This document shows, one piece after another, positions 51,516 through 63,124 of a stretch of 64,000 bases of DNA (its first letter is position 1; each line of letters opens with the position of its first letter). The notes under the pieces were generated by a model. The model made no database searches. It saw only the letters and a list, made by a program, of their open reading frames with translations, and was not told where the DNA came from. Both the position numbers and the translations under genes were made by a program. Source of the DNA: an uncultured Planctomycetota bacterium (lineage in GTDB: Bacteria > Planctomycetota > Planctomycetia > Gemmatales > Gemmataceae); assembly GCA_963849325.1 (NCBI GenBank), contig CAWKHF010000005.1, positions 512,001 through 576,000 on the forward strand, read 5' to 3'.

Positions 51516-51710
51516 TCAATCGGCTGTCTCTCCCCAGGTCAATCCCGCCGCTGCCAGTTCCTCGGCGGTGTGCCGCTGAAAGTGCTGCAACACATAATCG
51601 CGGCCCCAATCCTCGTTCTCGATGGCTTCCAGCGGCGGCAGCGGATGACCGAAATGCTCCGCCACCAACCGATACGCCTCCTCGGTCGTCAACTCGTAAA
51701 TACTTCGCAT
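51516..51710 (-). CDS. Small acidic hypothetical protein (64 aa)
   Basis: [39 protein letters not shown]...; plausible composition and RBS. Confidence 0.5.
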
Positions 51711-51807
51711 GGAATGGCTGTCCCTCAGGCGTCTTTTCGTCCAACCCACCTACAATAAACGCCCGTCAGCGTGTCCGCCAACGGCAGTCCTTCGAGGAGG
51801 GTCCGCC

Positions 51808-53113
51808 ATGAACGCATCGCCGCGTCTGCTGGTCCATCCGCGCGACGAGATCGTGCGGACGATGGAGCGCATCTACCGCTACCGCATGACGACCACCTCC
51901 GGCGGCAACCTGTCTGTCCGCGACGAGGACGGCGACGTGTGGATCACGCCGGCGCGGGTGGACAAGGGCAGCCTGCGCCGCGAGGACGTCGTCCGCGTCC
52001 GGGCCGACGGCGGCGTCGAGGGGCTGCACCGGCCGTCCTCGGAGCACCCCTTCCACCAGGGCGATCTACCAGGCGCGGCCCGACCTCCGCGCCGTCGTCC
52101 ACGCCCATCCGGTCGCCCTGGTGGCGTTCAGCATCTGCCGCCGCGTGCCGGACACGTCGCTGATGCCGCAGGCCGGACACGTCTGCGGCGCCGTCGGCTT
52201 CGCGCCGTACGCCCTGCCCGGCAGCGAGCAGCTCGGCCGCAACATCGCCGCCGTCTTCGGCCAGGGGTTCAACTGCGTGCTGCTGGAGAACCACGGCGTC
52301 GTCATCGGCGGGGCCAGCTTGGCCGAGGCGTTCCAGCGCTTCGAGACCCTGGAATTCACGGCCAAGACGATCATCAAGGCCAGCCTGCTCGGCCCGGTGC
52401 GCTACCTGACGCCGGAGCAGATCGCCCGGTCGCAGCCGCCGCGAGCCGCTGCCGGAGTTCGAGCCGGGACCGGCCGGCACGCACGAGAAGGAGCTGCGCC
52501 GAGCCGTCTGCGAATTCGTCCGTCGCGGCTACCGCCAGCGCCTGATGACCAGCACCGAGGGCAGCTTCTCCGCTCGCCTCGACGGCGACACCTTCCTCAT
52601 CACCTCCTACGGCATCGACCGGCAGGCACGTCGAGGTCGGATCAACTTGACGCTCGTCCACGACGGCCGCCGGGCCGTGGGCAACGCAGCCCAGCCGCGC
52701 CGTCCACATCCACCGGGCCATCTACCGCCGGCATCCCGAGGTCCACGCCATCGTCAACGCCATCCCGGTCAACGCCACGGCCTTCAGCGTCACCGCCACG
52801 CCGCTGGACAGCCGTACTATCCCCGAGAGTTACCTGCTGCTGCGCGACGTGGCCGCGGTGCCGTTCGGTTGGCAGTACGAGGACGGCGGACGCATCGCTG
52901 AGGCGGTCGTCGCCGGATCGGCCCATCGCCCTGCTCGAGAACGACGGCGTACTGGTCCTGGGCACGAGTCCGCTGGACGCCTTCGACCGGCTGGAAGTGC
53001 TGGAGTCCACGGCGGAGGCGATCATCAACAGCCGGGCCATCGGCGCGGTGCGGCGCATGGGCGACGACGTGATCGAGGAGCTGACCGAGGCGTTTTTGAG
53101 GAAGCAGGCATGA
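51808..53113 (+). CDS. Class II aldolase/adducin family protein with two tandem domains; frameshifted
   Basis: [29 protein letters not shown]; second domain STEGSFS, LLENDG. Confidence 0.88.
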
Positions 53114-53184: not shown

Positions 53185-54684
53185 CCTTCACCAGCACGAG
53201 AAGGGCGCCCTGTTCGTCGCGCAGTCGCAGGAGGATCTCGGCGCGGCGGGAGGAGGGCCACTGTCGATATTCGGACTCGACCAGGAGGCAATACGCCGTT
53301 TCGCCCTCCGGTAAGGACAACGATCCGGGCAAGCGCCGCGCCGGCCGGCCGTAATAGAACAGGATGCCCTCATCCTTGAGGCGAAAGAGATACAGCATCC
53401 GGCCGGGCGGCACCAGGGCGGCGATCTGTTCGCCCTTGCGCGCGGCTGGCGCGCCGGGTTCCGGCTCGGCAGGATCGCCTGCACGAAGACGAGCTTGACC
53501 GCCAGCCAAAGCACCAGCAGCGCGAGGAAGACGCGGCCCGGCCGCAGTCTGGGCACGGGCCAGCGCAAGCGGCCGTCGAGCCAGGCGACCCACACCAGGG
53601 CGGCCAGCCCGGCAAGGCCGGGTTGCAGTGGCATGGCATGACGCAGGTGATGTCCGGGCGCCAGACCCCAGAAGAGCAGATTCGGCCACGTCCAGCAGTG
53701 CAAGAACTGGAGCAGACGGCGGCCGCGCTCGTCCCACAGCCGCGCGAAGCCGGGATGCAGCGTCCTCAGCGCGAAGGCCGACCACGGCAGGTTCGCAGCC
53801 AGGAACGCGGCGGGGAAGGCGGCCAGTTCGTGCCAGGGATAGGGACGCGAATGATGAGCGGGCGACAGGCGCGGCAGCGCCTCGCGCCGCACGGCGTCCA
53901 AGAAGGTATCCCAGCCCATCCGTGTCGCCACCATCGCCGCCCAGGCGATGCACGGAGCCGCCGCCACGATCACGCTGAGTAGGTGGGATGGACGAAACAA
54001 CATCCGCAGCCGTCCACGCCACCAGAGAAGAGGCCCGACGGTGAGATAAAAGAATGCCGGAGCGGTCCACTTGGTCAGGACGCCGCCGGCCACGCACAAC
54101 AGGGCGAGTTGCCACCACAGCCATTCCCGCCCGAACGTGCGCTCCTCTGTCGATTCGCTAATCTCCAGGGCGCGGAGGAAGCACAGCAGCGCCGCCGTCA
54201 CCCAGGCGAGCTGTACCAGGTCGATCTCGGCGGAGGGAACGCGGCCCAACCACAGGGCCGAGGCGGGCAGCAGACCGGCGGCGATCAGGCCGGCGCGGCG
54301 GCCCAGGCGCCGCGCGAACGCCGTATAGAAGAGGAAGACCGTCGCCGTCGCGGCCAGCGCCGAGGGCAGGCGGGCCGTCGCGGCACTCACTCGCCCAGGC
54401 GGCCAACTGGCTGCGGCAATGGCCGCATACATCCCCGGCGGCTTGGTCAACAGCGGTTCGCCATACAAGGTGGGAACGATCCAATCGCCGTCGCGCAGCA
54501 ATTCCGCCGCCAGGATCGCCCGTAGACTCTCGGTCTGATACAGCTCGCCCGTGTTGAGGCCGAAAAAGAACAATACACCACACCACAGCGCCAACAACAG
54601 GGCGACCGCCATCCGTCGATGGCCGCTCAGCCGCAAGCGGTTTTCGGAACCGACTCGGAATGGAGACGATGCGAGCAGGGACAT
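53177..54684 (-). CDS. ArnT/GT39 family glycosyltransferase; frameshift near 53450
   Basis: [35 protein letters not shown], many TMs. Confidence 0.9.
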
Positions 54685-54797
54685 CCGCCACCTCGCTGCC
54701 GGGACCGGCGCGGCCCGCTCCTCGGGCGCGGCCAATCCGTGTGCGAGGCGAACTGTACCAGCGGAGGGCGGGGAGAGATAGGCGAGTCTGGGCGGCG

Positions 54798-55611
54798 TCA
54801 AGCGCCGAGGGCGCGCTTGATGTGCTGCACGAGATTTTTCATGACAAAGCCTTGCTCGGGGCAGATGGAGACGACCGCCCCGCGCTGGCGCAGGTGCTCG
54901 GCGAGCACCGGGCCAATCGCGGCGATGCGCGTGCGCGTCAGCCCTTTCCGCAGAGACGTCCTGCAATCCGCGATGCTGGGCGATCTCATACAAACGATCG
55001 ACCTGCGGCGAGCTGGTGAACAACAACACGTCCACCTCGCCGCGATCCAGGCGAGCGATCAGGTCGGCGACCCGCTCCTCATCGGCGGCGGGGGCATAGA
55101 CGTAAGGCAGGACCGTGCGCACCTGCGCCCCGGTCGAGGCGAGGAACTGCTCCAGCGCCGGGTTCGGCTCACCGTAGAGTGTGACGCCCACGGTCTGACC
55201 TGCGAGCGGCTCGCCGCGCAGCGTGGCGATGACGCCGTCCGTGGTGGGTGCCTGGGCAACGCGCGTCGGAGACAGACCGATCTCCTTGAGCACCTGACCG
55301 GGCTTGGGACCGCGCGTGAGGATTTTCGTCCGCCGCAGGGCGGCGATGACAGCGTCGCGCAACCCCTCGCGCTCGGCGAAGGCCAGCAAGCGGCGCAGGG
55401 CCTCGCCGGTCATCAGCACGACGTAGCCGAAGCGGTCGTCGCCCAGGTCGCGCAGCCAGTCCCGCACTGGATCGGGGTCCGGGGCGTCGAGGATGCTGAC
55501 CATCGGGCAGCGCAGCGTGGTTGCCCCTTCGCCTTCGAGCAGCTGCGCCAGCTCTTCGAGTTGGCGGGCTTCGGCCAGGGCGATGGTACGTCCTTCGAGG
55601 GGGCGCGACAT
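54798..55611 (-). CDS. hemD: Uroporphyrinogen-III synthase; frameshift near 54955
   Basis: LEGRTIALAEAR, LMTGEA, RGPKP, PYVY, FTSSPQV, AIGP. Confidence 0.88.
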
Positions 55612-55680
55612 GAGGTTCTCCCTGCTAGATGTATTTCCGAGCCGCTTGCGGCTTATAGGGTGTAAGAGTCTGTCCCACAA

Positions 55681-55740: not shown

Positions 55741-57009
55741 CTAGCGCGGCCAATTTTTGACGGCGTCGGCGGCCCCATGCATCAGGGGGTCAATGGCCCC
55801 GGCCGGCTCCTCGTGTTTGGCGCTGTCGCGCGAATTGAACAGGACGGCCCAGGCCAGGCCGTCGTGGCGGCGTACCAGCAATGTCGAGGTGCCATCCAGC
55901 GCGCCGTTATGCCAGATGTTGGCGCCGACAGCGCCGATCGGACGCACCATCCAACCACACCCATAATAGGCGTCGCGCGGCCGGCCGTTTGGTTTATGTC
56001 CGGCCGTGCCCGGCGGAGGCTGCAACATGATGGCAATGCTTTCCGGCTTGAGGATCTGGCAATGTCGCGGGTCGTCGAAGGCGCTGACGAAGCGCACCAG
56101 GTCGGGCGCGGAGGCCAACCAACCGCCGTGGGCGTCCATCGCTTCCAGGCACCAGGCGCCATAAGGCAGCGGCACCGGCTGGCCTCGGCGCGGCCCCATC
56201 ACGGCGGGCGCGGTGGCGTCCTTGGCGACATGGTATTTCACTTCGCCGCAGACACGATGGGCGAGCAGGGTCGCGCCCAGCCGCATGTCCCCAATACCCA
56301 GCGGGGCCAGCACCTCCTTGCGAACGTACGCCTCATACGTTTGGCCGCTAACCTTGGCGATGACGCGGCCGAGCAGACAGTAGCCGAAATTGGAATAGGC
56401 GTATTGGCTGCCGGGATCGAAATCGAGAGGCCGCCGCAGCATGTAACGGATGATGTCTTGCGGCCCAGCCGGAGGCGGCACCTCCAACTCGTTGACGATC
56501 GCGGGGGAACGAAACATCGGATCGAACGAGTGGTCTCGGTCCCAGCCGCCGCGGTGCTGCAACAGGTGCAGGATCGTCACCTGCTTCCAGCGCGGATCGA
56601 AACGGCCGCCCGGCCCCTTCGGCCGTCGCAATTGCAATACGTCGAAGACCGGGGCGTCGAGCTTCAGCCGCCCTCGTTCCACCAATTGCAACACGGCCAC
56701 GGCCGTAAGAGGTTTGGAGATGCTGGCGATGCGGAACAGGGCGTCGGGCTGGACCGGCTCGGCGGTCGAGCGGTCGGCGTAGCCAAAGCCGCGGCCGTAG
56801 ACGAGCCGGCCGTTCTTGGCGACGGCCAGGGACGCTCCCGGCAATTGATGCTCGCGGAGAAAGCGCCTCATCAGATCGTCAAAGCTGGCCAGGCGCGGAT
56901 CGACGCGCCCCGTCGCCGGCATCTCGCGGGCCGGCGTGGACGCGGGATCGCTGACACCGGGGAGACAGCAAGCGGCCCAGACGGCGGCCAATCCGAATGC
57001 GATGCGCAC
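55741..57009 (-). CDS. Secreted serine hydrolase (beta-lactamase class C-like)
   Basis: FRIASISKP, LLQHRGG, YSNFGY, WHNG. Confidence 0.92.
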   Translation of the reverse strand: MRIAFGLAAVWAACCLPGVSDPASTPAREMPATGRVDPRLASFDDLMRRFLREHQLPGASLAVAKNGRLVYGRGFGYADRSTAEPVQPDALFRIASISKPLTAVAVLQLVERGRLKLDAPVFDVLQLRRPKGPGGRFDPRWKQVTILHLLQHRGGWDRDHSFDPMFRSPAIVNELEVPPPAGPQDIIRYMLRRPLDFDPGSQYAYSNFGYCLLGRVIAKVSGQTYEAYVRKEVLAPLGIGDMRLGATLLAHRVCGEVKYHVAKDATAPAVMGPRRGQPVPLPYGAWCLEAMDAHGGWLASAPDLVRFVSAFDDPRHCQILKPESIAIMLQPPPGTAGHKPNGRPRDAYYGCGWMVRPIGAVGANIWHNGALDGTSTLLVRRHDGLAWAVLFNSRDSAKHEEPAGAIDPLMHGAADAVKNWPR

Positions 57010-57176
57010 AGGTCCATCTCCCGCCAAGGGTATCAGGGCCGGGCCACCGAAGATTGGCCCGATCGCCCTCCCGGCCAACACCTTTCCGATTATGAAGGGC
57101 GCCAGGGTCCGGGGCAAGCGCAATCATCGGATGCCTTTCCGCCGATTCCTGCCGTGCATGAAAGTCGGTTGGACCG

Positions 57177-60130: not shown

Positions 60131-60206
60131 TGTTTTCCCGACAAGCCCGGAGCGCCAGCGACGGGTTCTCACCCGTCGCTGGCGCTCCGGGCTTGTCGGG
60201 AAAACA
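60131..60206. repeat. Perfect 36-bp-stem palindrome between the two LysM genes
   Basis: TGTTTTCCCGACAAGCCCGGAGCGCCAGCGACGGGT-TCTC-exact reverse complement. Confidence 0.92.
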
Positions 60207-60209
60207 CGG

Positions 60210-61753
60210 TCACTCCTGTTCGGCCGTCGTCGTCGGACGGCTGGCGGCGGCGCTCTTCTGCTGCGTGTACTGACGCCAGCGCGCGGCGTCCCAGACCTCA
60301 AAGTGATCGTCAATGCCGACCAGCACCAGTTCCTGATGCAGTCCGGCGAACTGGGCCAACCGATCCGGGAGCGTGACCCGGCCGTCGGTGTTGACCGACA
60401 GCTTCTCCGTCTGGGCGAAGTACAGGCGTTTGAAGACGCGCACGTCGACTTCGTTGGCCTGCGACTGCTCCAGACGTTCGCCGAGGCGTTCCAGGTGCGG
60501 CTGGTTGGTCAGCCACAGGCACTTGTCCGGGCCGGGCGAGACCAGGACGGTATCGCTGCCGGATAGCTGATCGCGGATGGTGCGCGGCAAAGTGAGCTGG
60601 TTTTTCTCATCGAGGCTGCACTGGTAGGTGCCGGTCAGCGGCAGCACGCGGGCCTTGGGCGGCGCCGGCTTGGGCCGCAGCGCCGGCAGCGGCTTGACCG
60701 GCTCGGCCTCATCGCCCTGCATGCAGGCGTCGCCGGGCAGCCGAACCGTCGTGCCGGCGCCGAGCGGCGCATCCGGTTTCAGCGTGGGATTGAGCTTGTG
60801 GATGTCGGTCCAGCGCTCCGTGCTGCCGAGCGTGCGGCGCACGATGTCCTGCAACGTCTCGGAGCCGTGGACATGGTACAGCTGCACGGGTCCGGGCGCC
60901 GGGGCCAGCGGTGGCTCACCGGGCTGCGGCTTGCCCTCGTGGTCCACGCCGGGCGCGGCGCTGGCGCCAGCGGCCGTTGTCGTGGCATAGGACGTCGGAG
61001 CCACCTTGTCGGGATTGCTCGATGGCGGCGGTCCATCGAAAGGCATGAACGAGGAGGGTTTCGCCTCGGCCGGTTTCTCCGACGGCGGCCGAGGGTTAGA
61101 CCAGGCCGGTGGCATCGACGTGGACGGCGGCAATACCTTACTCGGCTTCGACTTGTCTGGGGTCATTGGAGGGGGTGCAGAAGAAGGCGCGAAAGCAGGG
61201 AAGCTGGGCGGGGTCCCAGCCGCCGGTGTGCTCGCCGACATCTTCCGATCTTCGTCCTTCTTCTGTCCCGCCTTCGCAGTTGTCTCTTCCTTCTTCGATG
61301 TAGGCGGCGCGGGCGTGTTGGGATTGAACGATACCGGCTGCACGGGGGGGATAGGCGGCAGTGGCGGAGTTGCGTTGGGCTTGGCGAGAGGTTCCGCCAT
61401 CGTGGGCATGCCGAGCAGGACCTTCGGCTCGGGCGCGTCTTTTTCGCCGTGGGTTTCTCTTTCGACTTGGCAGCCGCCGTCTTGGTATCGATCACCGGCG
61501 GCAGCACCTTCTCCGGCGTGGCCGAGTGCAGACCGAGGCTCCAGTCATTGACGGGTGTTCCTTTGTCCTTGCTCGTCTTGGGCGGGGGCGATGGTTCCTT
61601 GTCTTCCTTGCTCGAAGGCGGCATCTCGAACGGCTTGTCCGCCTGAGCGACGGCCTTGTTGCCGTCGTGGAGTTTGCAAGCGAGGACCAGGCCGAACAGG
61701 CAGATCAATCCGCCCAGGGCCATCCATGCGTACTGGGTCTTGCGGGTAAGCAT
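60210..61753 (-). CDS. TM + Pro-rich linker + LysM + MraZ fusion protein (~514 aa after correcting one indel at 61440-61444)
   Basis: N-terminal TM in frame 61163..61753; frame 60210..61409 has LysM (LYHVHGSETLQDIVRRTLGSTERWTDIHKLNP...LGAGTTVRLP) followed in-frame by MraZ (LTGTYQCSLDEKNQLTLP...DKCLWL...GRVTLP...LVGIDDHFEVWD). Confidence 0.85.
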
Positions 61754-61844: not shown

Positions 61845-62775
61845 TCAGCGCGGATCTCGGCCGGCTTCCGGCAGCGCCGCCCGCAGCTTGGCGCTGCGGG
61901 CGCGCGGATTGTTCTTCATTTCGTCCTCGCCGGCCTGCACCGGCTTGCGCATCAGCGCCTCCCACACCGAGCGCTCGCGGAACGCCTGTTTGACCAGGCG
62001 ATCCTCCAGCGAATGAAAACTGATGAGGACGACTCGTCCTCCCGGCCGCACGCGCGCCGGCAACACCTTCAGTAAGCGCTCCAGCTCGTCCAGCTCGTCG
62101 TTGACGGCGATGCGGAGCGCCTGGAAGACGCGAGTGGCCGGATCGATGATCGGCCGTCGCCGTTTCGCCGAGCGCGGCGGCCGCGGTACACAGCGGCGCA
62201 CGAGGTCGGCCAACTCCTCGGTGGTCTCTAGCGGCTGACGGCGCCGCGCTTCGACAATCCGCCGCGCAATGCGCCGGCTGAAGCGCTCTTCGCCGTCAGC
62301 GCCAGATCAGGTCGGCGAGGTCGCGTTCGTTGAGGCGACGCAGCAGGGCGGCGGCCGGCTCGCCTTCCGTCGGGTCCAGCCGCATGTCCAACGGACCCGG
62401 CTGGGTGAAGCTCAAACCGCGACCGGCCTCGTCCAGCTGGTCCGAGCAGATGCCCAGGTCGGCCAGTACGCCATCGACGGCGGCAACGCCCAGTTCCTCA
62501 AGGACTTCGTCCAGCCGCGAGAACGGGGCGTGAATCCGCGTCACCGGCAGGTCCGCCAAGCGAGGGCGGGCCAACTCCAACATGCTCGCATCGCGGTCCA
62601 GTGCGATGAGCCGGCCGTCCGGTCCCAACTGCTCGGCGATCAGGCGAGCGTGACCGCCGGCGCCGACGGTGGCATCGACGAATACCTGGCCCGGCTCGGG
62701 CGCCAGTGCCGCCAGCACCTCGACCGGCAGGACCGACACGTGGCGCGGCGAGGCGCCGGAAACAGAATCACTCAT
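61845..62775 (-). CDS. rsmH: 16S rRNA m4C1402 methyltransferase RsmH (MraW); frameshifted
   Basis: HVSVL, VDATVGAGGH, ADLGICSDQLD, GPLDMRL, PATRVFQALRIAVNDEL, ISFHSLEDRLVK, NPRARSAKLR. Confidence 0.96.
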
Positions 62776-63124
62776 GAGGCACATCGAGATAAGACGCGAA
62801 GGGTAGGCAACGTGAGGGCTTCTTCTCCGTGCTCGCGCCCGTCTCCGGGAGCAAGAAGACTATACCCATTTCGGGCCGCGAATCAAGGCGAAGGACTTAC
62901 GACCGAAAATGCACCCTGTTCGGAAGGGCTGGGCTAACGAAAAAACACCAGACCCCAAACCATTCGCGCACCCCGCCCCGCCTTGAAGATGCGGCGAGTT
63001 GACGCTGCTGCGCCGGAGGGCGATGACTATAATGGCGAGGCTGGTCCGCCGCGTGTACGGATGCGCACCGCGAGAGGGCGGATCGGCCGTTTCCCTCTCG
63101 GAACTCGGCCAAGGGAGTATTCGC

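Follow-up and report, generated by a model that had tools for sequence, protein, structure and literature searches.

To our knowledge, MraZ is conserved more widely than any other gene of the dcw (division and cell-wall) cluster, and the only form of it on record is a soluble repressor that binds an operator. The slot after rsmH is held by ftsL in Escherichia coli, and the bitopic division proteins FtsN, DamX and DedD are built of a short tail, a transmembrane (TM) helix, a Pro/Gln-rich linker and a small C-terminal, wall-binding SPOR domain. Operator reading has been described from cryo-electron microscopy of Mycoplasma genitalium MraZ, where the GTG(T/G) box is read by Lys13, Arg15 and Arg86, an Ala mutation at any one of these three abolishes DNA binding, and the arginines are held in place by Asp11 and Asp82 (PMC12957436). 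Here we present a gene in which a predicted complete MraZ domain forms the C-terminal part of a membrane-anchored protein, encoded on the minus strand of a 64,000-nucleotide stretch from an uncultured planctomycete of the family Gemmataceae (assembly GCA_963849325.1, contig CAWKHF010000005.1, positions 512,001 to 576,000; hereafter the window). The architecture is a new form within the known MraZ family and, since DNA-reading residues have been lost from it, the anchored MraZ probably has a new job at the cell envelope. The gene and its parts, in the order of the protein, are as follows.

60210..61753, minus strand: whole anchored-MraZ gene, consisting of open reading frames (ORFs) 61753..61163 and 61409..60210, which overlap and are joined by a shift of one base in the A5 run 61440-61444
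61676..61732, minus strand: single TM helix at residues 8-26; a tail of 7-9 residues containing Arg and Lys comes before it, and a conserved juxtamembrane motif of Lys/Arg/Asp after it
60888..61675, minus strand: Pro-rich stalk, poorly conserved, its consensus mostly undefined apart from Pro; holds the frameshift
60735..60887, minus strand: LysM-fold domain of the type called LysM-B here, homologous to the last domain of an ancestral TM-Pro-LysM-LysM protein
60642..60734, minus strand: conserved linker with an invariant Cys right after LysM, an acidic patch and a Pro/Lys-rich motif with an invariant Leu-Pro; disordered in the model
60240..60641, minus strand: complete two-repeat MraZ domain with degenerate DXXXR motifs, the Arg15 position being Gln and the Asp82 position Asn

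The fusion and its frame break

In the window the gene is spread over two frames: ORF 61753..61163 encodes the N-terminal tail and hydrophobic helix and overlaps, out of frame, the 399-residue ORF 61409..60210, and past the A5 run the second frame resembles the matching region of intact orthologues. A first-pass annotation, made from the letters of the window, had joined the two frames at this run into one protein that unites a TM helix and a Pro-rich stalk with LysM and a full MraZ; its coordinates and its join at 61440-61444 hold, and the single protein is borne out by homologues. A search over 5.8 billion proteins gave 329 matches, 120 of them listed, and PF02381 is present in all 120 listed homologues, most of which have 400-540 amino acids and of which the named ones are from Gemmataceae. 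In 69 of these 120 (407-541 amino acids), the N-terminal tail and helix stand in one frame with stalk, LysM and MraZ, while the remaining 51 missed the N-terminus pattern, many of them being 221-311 amino acids long and derived from contigs of 1-3 kb. The annotation had staked the fusion on its conservation in at least some relatives and on there being no stop codon between LysM and MraZ; relatives do conserve it, neither such a stop nor an internal start is conserved there, and the linker upstream of the GTG codon at ~60647 is conserved as protein.

Within the same genus, the anchored gene was matched in all ten genomes, directly after rsmH in every one, with helix and MraZ in one uninterrupted frame in at least eight; the order rsmH, anchored MraZ, TM-Pro-LysM is found in all ten and also in two further genomes (G014 and G023). 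The median ratio of nonsynonymous to synonymous substitution rates (dN/dS; eight genomes, 28 pairs) is 0.107 in the MraZ domain and 0.232 in LysM. By this measure the MraZ domain is under strong purifying selection, and by the counts above the fusion is a real, conserved Gemmataceae gene and not a chance arrangement.

The frame break in the window is most likely an assembly indel error, because two other genes there, rsmH and a class II aldolase/adducin-family gene, are also split. In rsmH (62213-62296), one frame stops just past the conserved N-terminal half and another carries the middle part of the methyltransferase. The aldolase gene (51709-53113, plus strand) is read as two ORFs that overlap and match profile positions 2-74 and 108-181, respectively, and as a third broken gene it likewise points to assembly indel errors. 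The source genome consists of 14 contigs with a completeness of only 84.7%, and two relatives of few contigs and low completeness (G002 and G007) have split genes at the same locus too. A decaying pseudogene, or an assembly chimera without function, would also account for a gene that is frameshifted in the window. This reading is largely refuted by the intact single-frame orthologues in many genomes and metagenomes, by a dN/dS of ~0.1 and by the other split genes in the window and in G002 and G007, which indicate indel errors, and we hold it to be very improbable. The frameshift site itself (61434-61446, minus strand) reads G AAA AAG, which we take to be like a classical -1 slippery motif, and slippage by -1 at this point would produce the protein of the repaired frame; since the orthologues need no shift, the likeness is probably a coincidence.

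Fold, descent and DNA-reading residues of the MraZ domain

Pfam places MraZ (PF02381) on two stretches of the 399-residue ORF with E 2.7e-21 and no other family at E<=0.1, and the same family matches all 78 orthologues. When the last 246 amino acids were compared with the PDB by phmmer, residues 105-232 aligned to full-length Mycoplasma MraZ (E 1e-18). An AlphaFold2 model of these 246 residues, built with 78 sequences, has a mean predicted local distance difference test score (pLDDT) of 83.7, with values above 90 both for the MraZ domain (residues 104-237) and for a beta-alpha-alpha-beta unit (residues 22-72) and with a disordered linker between them; Foldseek ranks Mycoplasma MraZ structures first against the model (E 2.9e-13, target TM-score 0.77), and a search of the ESM Atlas gave no usable match. 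In profile and model alike, the tandem MraZ/SpoVT-AbrB-like repeats form one complete MraZ domain.

A maximum-likelihood tree of 32 MraZ domains, which excludes G002 (split gene) and G005 (missed by the pattern), groups the 12 anchored domains into a single clade (support 99/95). This clade falls inside canonical Gemmataceae MraZ (100/99), the outgroup being 14 other Planctomycetota sequences. On this tree, the anchored MraZ domain has a single origin, by duplication of the family's own mraZ. One genome, G019, combines a canonical mraZ, operator boxes included, with an anchored paralogue that follows rsmH and sits on a very long branch, and this coexistence suggests either an intermediate stage or a possible partner that sequesters MraZ. 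The G019 paralogue (L023 3804-5018, minus strand) has 404 amino acids and a TM helix, is without LysM and has wholly lost both motifs.

At positions 11, 13, 15, 82 and 86, the window has Asp, Lys, Gln, Asn and Arg. Across the 78 orthologues, the Arg15 position is occupied by Gln in 29, Thr in 19, Ala in 11, Arg in 10, Val in five, Gly in two and His and Met in one each, and the Asp82 position by Asn in 42, Ser in 21, Thr in 10, Gly in four and Asp in one; a cruder motif count finds Arg in 22 of the 90 parsable sequences among the 120 listed. Both DXXXR motifs are intact in 15 of 15 canonical Planctomycetota MraZ, and the first is intact in six of six canonical Gemmataceae MraZ. By these alignments the anchored family does not carry the two DXXXR motifs that mark canonical MraZ, nor does it share the small size and solubility of the latter, its orthologues having 407-541 amino acids and an N-terminal TM helix.

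The helix that forms the MraZ subunit interface is highly conserved in the anchored domains. A homo-oligomer prediction with four MraZ-domain copies, run without controls, scored 0.21 against a mark of 0.42 and weighs neither way on oligomerisation. Cys144 is invariant in the anchored family and is also Cys in most canonical sequences, so that it is uninformative on disulfides; the Cys right after LysM, by contrast, is present in 78 of 78 orthologues and specific to the anchored family.

LysM, the gene row and its promoter

The profile check that the first-pass annotation had proposed came out unevenly. MraZ is clearly recognised, as given above, while Pfam LysM has no match in the window's own segment (60735-60887) at E<=0.1, and it is among the orthologues that the domain appears in profile: PF01476 is found at E<=1 in 22 of the 78 (best 3.6e-6), and Phage_tail_X (PF05489) is matched by 15 of the 78. 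Modelled alone with AlphaFold2, the segment takes up strand E10-13, helices H20-28 and H31-40 and strand E55-58 with a pLDDT of 80.6, and its top-ranked placeable Foldseek matches are LysM-type, with probabilities of 0.9-1.0, a best E value of 5.5e-3 and none <=0.001. Among these matches are phage baseplate proteins, Kbp and the GINKO1 sensor, MltD, LysM domains from an NlpC/P60 endopeptidase, and LysM proteins of plants and fungi that bind chitin. In the model, the LysM assignment is right as a beta-alpha-alpha-beta fold, of a subtype nearest to Kbp and tail-X proteins. A homologue search limited to the LysM segment returned almost only the same family and no other informative domain partners.

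The likely source of the remaining parts of the protein lies next to rsmH as well. An order-wide family found after rsmH (18 loci in 18 genomes) begins with a tail of six residues and a TM helix and continues with a Pro-rich stalk, LysM-A and LysM-B, and the C-termini of seven of ten members pass the Pfam LysM cut-off, six at the terminal LysM-B and one at LysM-A (best 2.5e-12). By inspection, the N-terminus of the anchored protein and its LysM, to just past the last strand, resemble the N-terminus and the LysM-B end of this ancestral family, and the 561-residue paralogue downstream of the anchored gene retains LysM-A only. In Tuwongella immobilis, a 76-kDa LysM protein beside rsmH_2, a candidate orthologue by its position, is labelled 'SP(Sec/SPI)' in a published table and was undetected in the proteome; PF02381 stands only in the E. 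coli rows of the same table (PMC8567305).

In the 64-kb window, the gene row reads on the minus strand from promoter through rsmH, the anchored-MraZ gene and an inverted repeat to the gene of the 561-residue TM-Pro-LysM protein. The flanking features are as follows.

62859..62886, minus strand: promoter hexamers TTGATT (62886..62881) and TATAGT (62864..62859) with a 16-nt spacer; the same promoter precedes canonical mraZ in sister genera and is here without GTGGG boxes after it
61845..62784, minus strand: rsmH (MraW methylase family in Pfam), as ORFs of 162 and 122 amino acids with one frameshift near 62290
60137..60200, no strand: perfect 29-bp inverted repeat with a 6-nt loop, immediately 3' of the anchored-MraZ stop codon
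58344..60029, minus strand: downstream paralogue of 561 amino acids, with a short tail, TM helix, Pro-rich stalk and C-terminal LysM-A-like segment, without MraZ and without a Pfam match

In the sister genera, three to four GTGGG-like boxes at 10-bp spacing come after the promoter TTGATT-16-TATAGT, and mraZ after them, whereas in the window and in nine of ten same-genus genomes it stands directly upstream of rsmH without boxes. A degenerate three-box pattern finds arrays at five of six canonical sister-genus loci and none in the window or at 12 loci upstream of rsmH; the exact pattern has one match each, at the mraZ promoter, in three of five canonical genomes and no match in the source genome. 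The separate canonical mraZ that the first-pass annotation wished to see sought was not found in the source genome, where (at 84.7% completeness) the anchored gene is the sole MraZ match, and with the anchored protein as query no second MraZ locus was found in the ten same-genus genomes. As far as these genomes go, the former mraZ promoter now drives rsmH directly in this genus, and canonical mraZ is gone together with its boxes.

The same loci bear on the reading of the gene as a precursor or a gene with two products, whose soluble MraZ would be freed by proteolysis in the linker or by an internal start and would act as the cell's MraZ regulator. It could draw on the linker, which is conserved and predicted to be disordered and which, with its invariant Leu-Pro and its conserved Lys residues, might be where processing takes place, on the GTG at the domain boundary in the window, and on the lack of any other mraZ found in the genome. 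Nonetheless, the position of that GTG, which the annotation had named as a start from which MraZ might be made independently, is Val in 64 of the 78 orthologues and Ala, Thr, Ser, Leu or His in the other 14; a released domain would still be without Arg15 and Asp82 and without GTGGG boxes to bind; and a C-terminus lying outside the membrane would, even when released, still be out of reach of DNA. We judge this reading improbable.

Several further observations concern the same stretch. Between the -10 box and the rsmH start, where the sister genera have their MraZ boxes, an inverted repeat, CTTCTT ... AAGAAG, with a GC-rich core between its arms is common to several same-genus genomes (window 62790-62858, minus strand; L025, L027 and L030); it may act as a hairpin of the leader or as an operator for some other regulator. 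The 29-bp inverted repeat at 60137-60200 has no T-run, and in some same-genus genomes (L007, L026 and L031) the rsmH leader contains long palindromes similar to it; the repeat may be a REP-like (repetitive extragenic palindromic) element or a hairpin that stabilises the transcript. The gene of a 460-residue beta-lactamase/transpeptidase-family protein (PF00144, E 3e-69; 55741-57123, minus strand) is placed two ORFs downstream of the TM-Pro-LysM paralogue and may be a further cell-wall link of the gene row. An ORF of 830 amino acids (53188-55680, minus strand) combines uroporphyrinogen-III synthase (HemD) and PMT-type glycosyltransferase domains, an unusual pairing.

Topology, possible role and comparison with known systems

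Because the protein has a single TM helix, LysM and MraZ must share one side of the membrane, a point on which the first-pass annotation finds support. The helix has a mean Kyte-Doolittle hydropathy of 2.02 over 77 orthologues. In all 77, the N-terminal tail contains Arg and Lys and no acidic residue, and the net charge of the N-terminal flank, set against that of the 15 residues after the helix, is higher in 53, equal in 23 and lower in one. This tail charge, a layout like that of wall-binding bitopic proteins, the homology of N-terminus and LysM end to the order-wide family after rsmH, the Sec label of the Tuwongella protein, and the loss of DNA-reading residues and boxes all point to an outside C-terminus, and the stalk, LysM and MraZ are probably located outside the cytoplasmic membrane. 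The annotation had also seen a possible lipobox, VLAC, but a lipoprotein was rejected: the Cys is replaced in five of 70 parsed N-termini (Ser in three, Tyr in one, Phe in one), the -1 residue varies, and the hydrophobic stretch is a highly conserved one of 19 residues.

It is important to note what weighs against an outside location and a departure from DNA. Two or three Lys/Arg directly follow the helix, which normally disfavours export of that side. The closest LysM structures include E. coli Kbp, which forms the LysM-bearing part of GINKO1 (29-30% identity, root-mean-square deviation 1.7-1.8 A) and phage baseplate proteins; Kbp is cytoplasmic and phage baseplate parts are assembled in the cytoplasm, so that the LysM fold alone proves neither peptidoglycan binding nor an outside location. 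In G001, G005, G014 and G019, tblastn detects no LysM in the anchored gene, which argues that LysM is not essential to the core function and that the constant core consists of helix, spacer, linker and MraZ. The net charge of the MraZ domain does not differ, with a mean of -2.5 in the anchored family and -3 in one canonical relative. Finally, Asp11 is kept in 78 of 78 orthologues, Lys13 in 69 and Arg86 in 76, so that DNA or another anionic ligand might still be bound, with changed specificity.

The main rival draws these points together into a membrane-tethered form on the cytoplasmic face, in which the helix would be oriented N-out/C-in and an MraZ oligomer, held at the membrane, would bind DNA with changed or relaxed specificity or sequester canonical MraZ in mixed oligomers, as G019 might allow with its canonical mraZ, boxes and anchored paralogue. 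By the positive-inside rule, the Lys/Arg behind the helix agree with a C-side in the cytoplasm, and the LysM subtype nearest to Kbp and phage baseplate proteins, together with the largely kept Asp11, Lys13 and Arg86, would sit well with it. All known MraZ proteins are, moreover, cytoplasmic DNA binders (PMC12957436). Against it, the N-terminal tail, which carries Arg and Lys but in none of 77 orthologues an acidic residue, disfavours its own translocation; Arg15 is unconstrained and Asp82 lost; there are no operator-like repeat arrays at the operon promoter or elsewhere in the window; and the genus is without a canonical MraZ to sequester. On balance we consider this rival unlikely, although a serious one.

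The reading that we prefer, and to which we give about an even chance, is that of an MraZ fold repurposed on a bitopic envelope protein, probably outside the cytoplasm and no longer reading the GTGGG operator. The N-terminus would remain cytoplasmic, with the long disordered stalk, LysM and MraZ beyond the cytoplasmic membrane, where the MraZ fold, as a module for oligomerisation or ligand binding, would gather several LysM-bearing stalks into a bundle at the peptidoglycan; expression would be from the former mraZ promoter, together with rsmH and the paralogous TM-Pro-LysM protein. Between the two roles that the first-pass annotation had offered, an exported ring scaffold is favoured by this evidence, whereas a membrane-tethered regulator sensing muropeptides is weakened because the DNA-reading residues and operator boxes are lost. 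A more far-reaching version, tentative and in our view rather doubtful, has an exported MraZ oligomer on Pro-rich stalks clustering LysM on peptidoglycan and, with the paralogue in the ftsL slot, forming part of an envelope-remodelling or budding machine that replaces missing divisome parts. The lineage divides without FtsZ, and the tie of the anchored protein to such division, which the annotation had also proposed, is purely positional, namely its place after rsmH.

A lineage without FtsZ would thus have replaced MraZ by a membrane-anchored paralogue that is without the residues and boxes of the known mechanism, yet is strongly constrained. Such a natural separation-of-function variant can show what role the MraZ fold plays once operator reading is gone, and the locus offers two conserved, uncharacterised envelope proteins beside rsmH as targets for planctomycete cell biology. 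If MraZ is indeed exported here, this would be the first time that the most conserved dcw regulator is seen to have become a structural protein of the envelope. In public annotations these proteins go simply by the name 'MraZ protein' or 'transcriptional repressor MraZ', a label that is probably misleading for the anchored family. No paper on an MraZ-LysM or MraZ-TM architecture was found in the literature on MraZ, Planctomycetes, Gemmata/Gemmataceae and Gemmata obscuriglobus, in a coverage that leaves out most subscription journals. A search for longer proteins with a diverse MraZ profile gave 237 matches, the 120 listed all belonging to the anchored family, and in a 301-genome sample of the phylum, among the 150 MraZ matches listed (with 335 more), only that of the window lies in an open frame of more than 252 amino acids.

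Among known systems, canonical MraZ (PF02381; E. coli, M. genitalium and M. pneumoniae, structures 1N0E, 9QLG and 9R4J) is the source of the anchored domain and shares with it the two-repeat fold and the subunit-interface helix. In the anchored form, however, MraZ is the C-terminal domain of a membrane protein of ~510 amino acids and not a soluble protein of ~150, its gene stands after rsmH and not before it, Arg15 and Asp82 are unconserved, and the promoter is without operator boxes. For the LysM segment, the closest structures are Kbp/YgaU and the phage-tail-X and baseplate LysM-like domains (7VCM and 7PVC, with the identity and deviation given above, and 8KEA), from which the anchored protein differs in having neither a BON domain nor a phage context. 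ToxR/CadC-type regulators also unite a DNA-binding fold with a single TM helix, but they place an N-terminal DNA-binding domain in the cytoplasm and a sensor in the periplasm, whereas anchored MraZ has both folded domains on one side and degenerate DNA-reading residues. The SPOR proteins FtsN, DamX and DedD come near in layout, with tail, TM helix, linker and wall-binding domain, and the ancestral neighbour family is closer to them still; the anchored protein nevertheless has a LysM-type domain in place of SPOR, an additional MraZ and no sequence relation to them, so that the likeness is one of layout alone.

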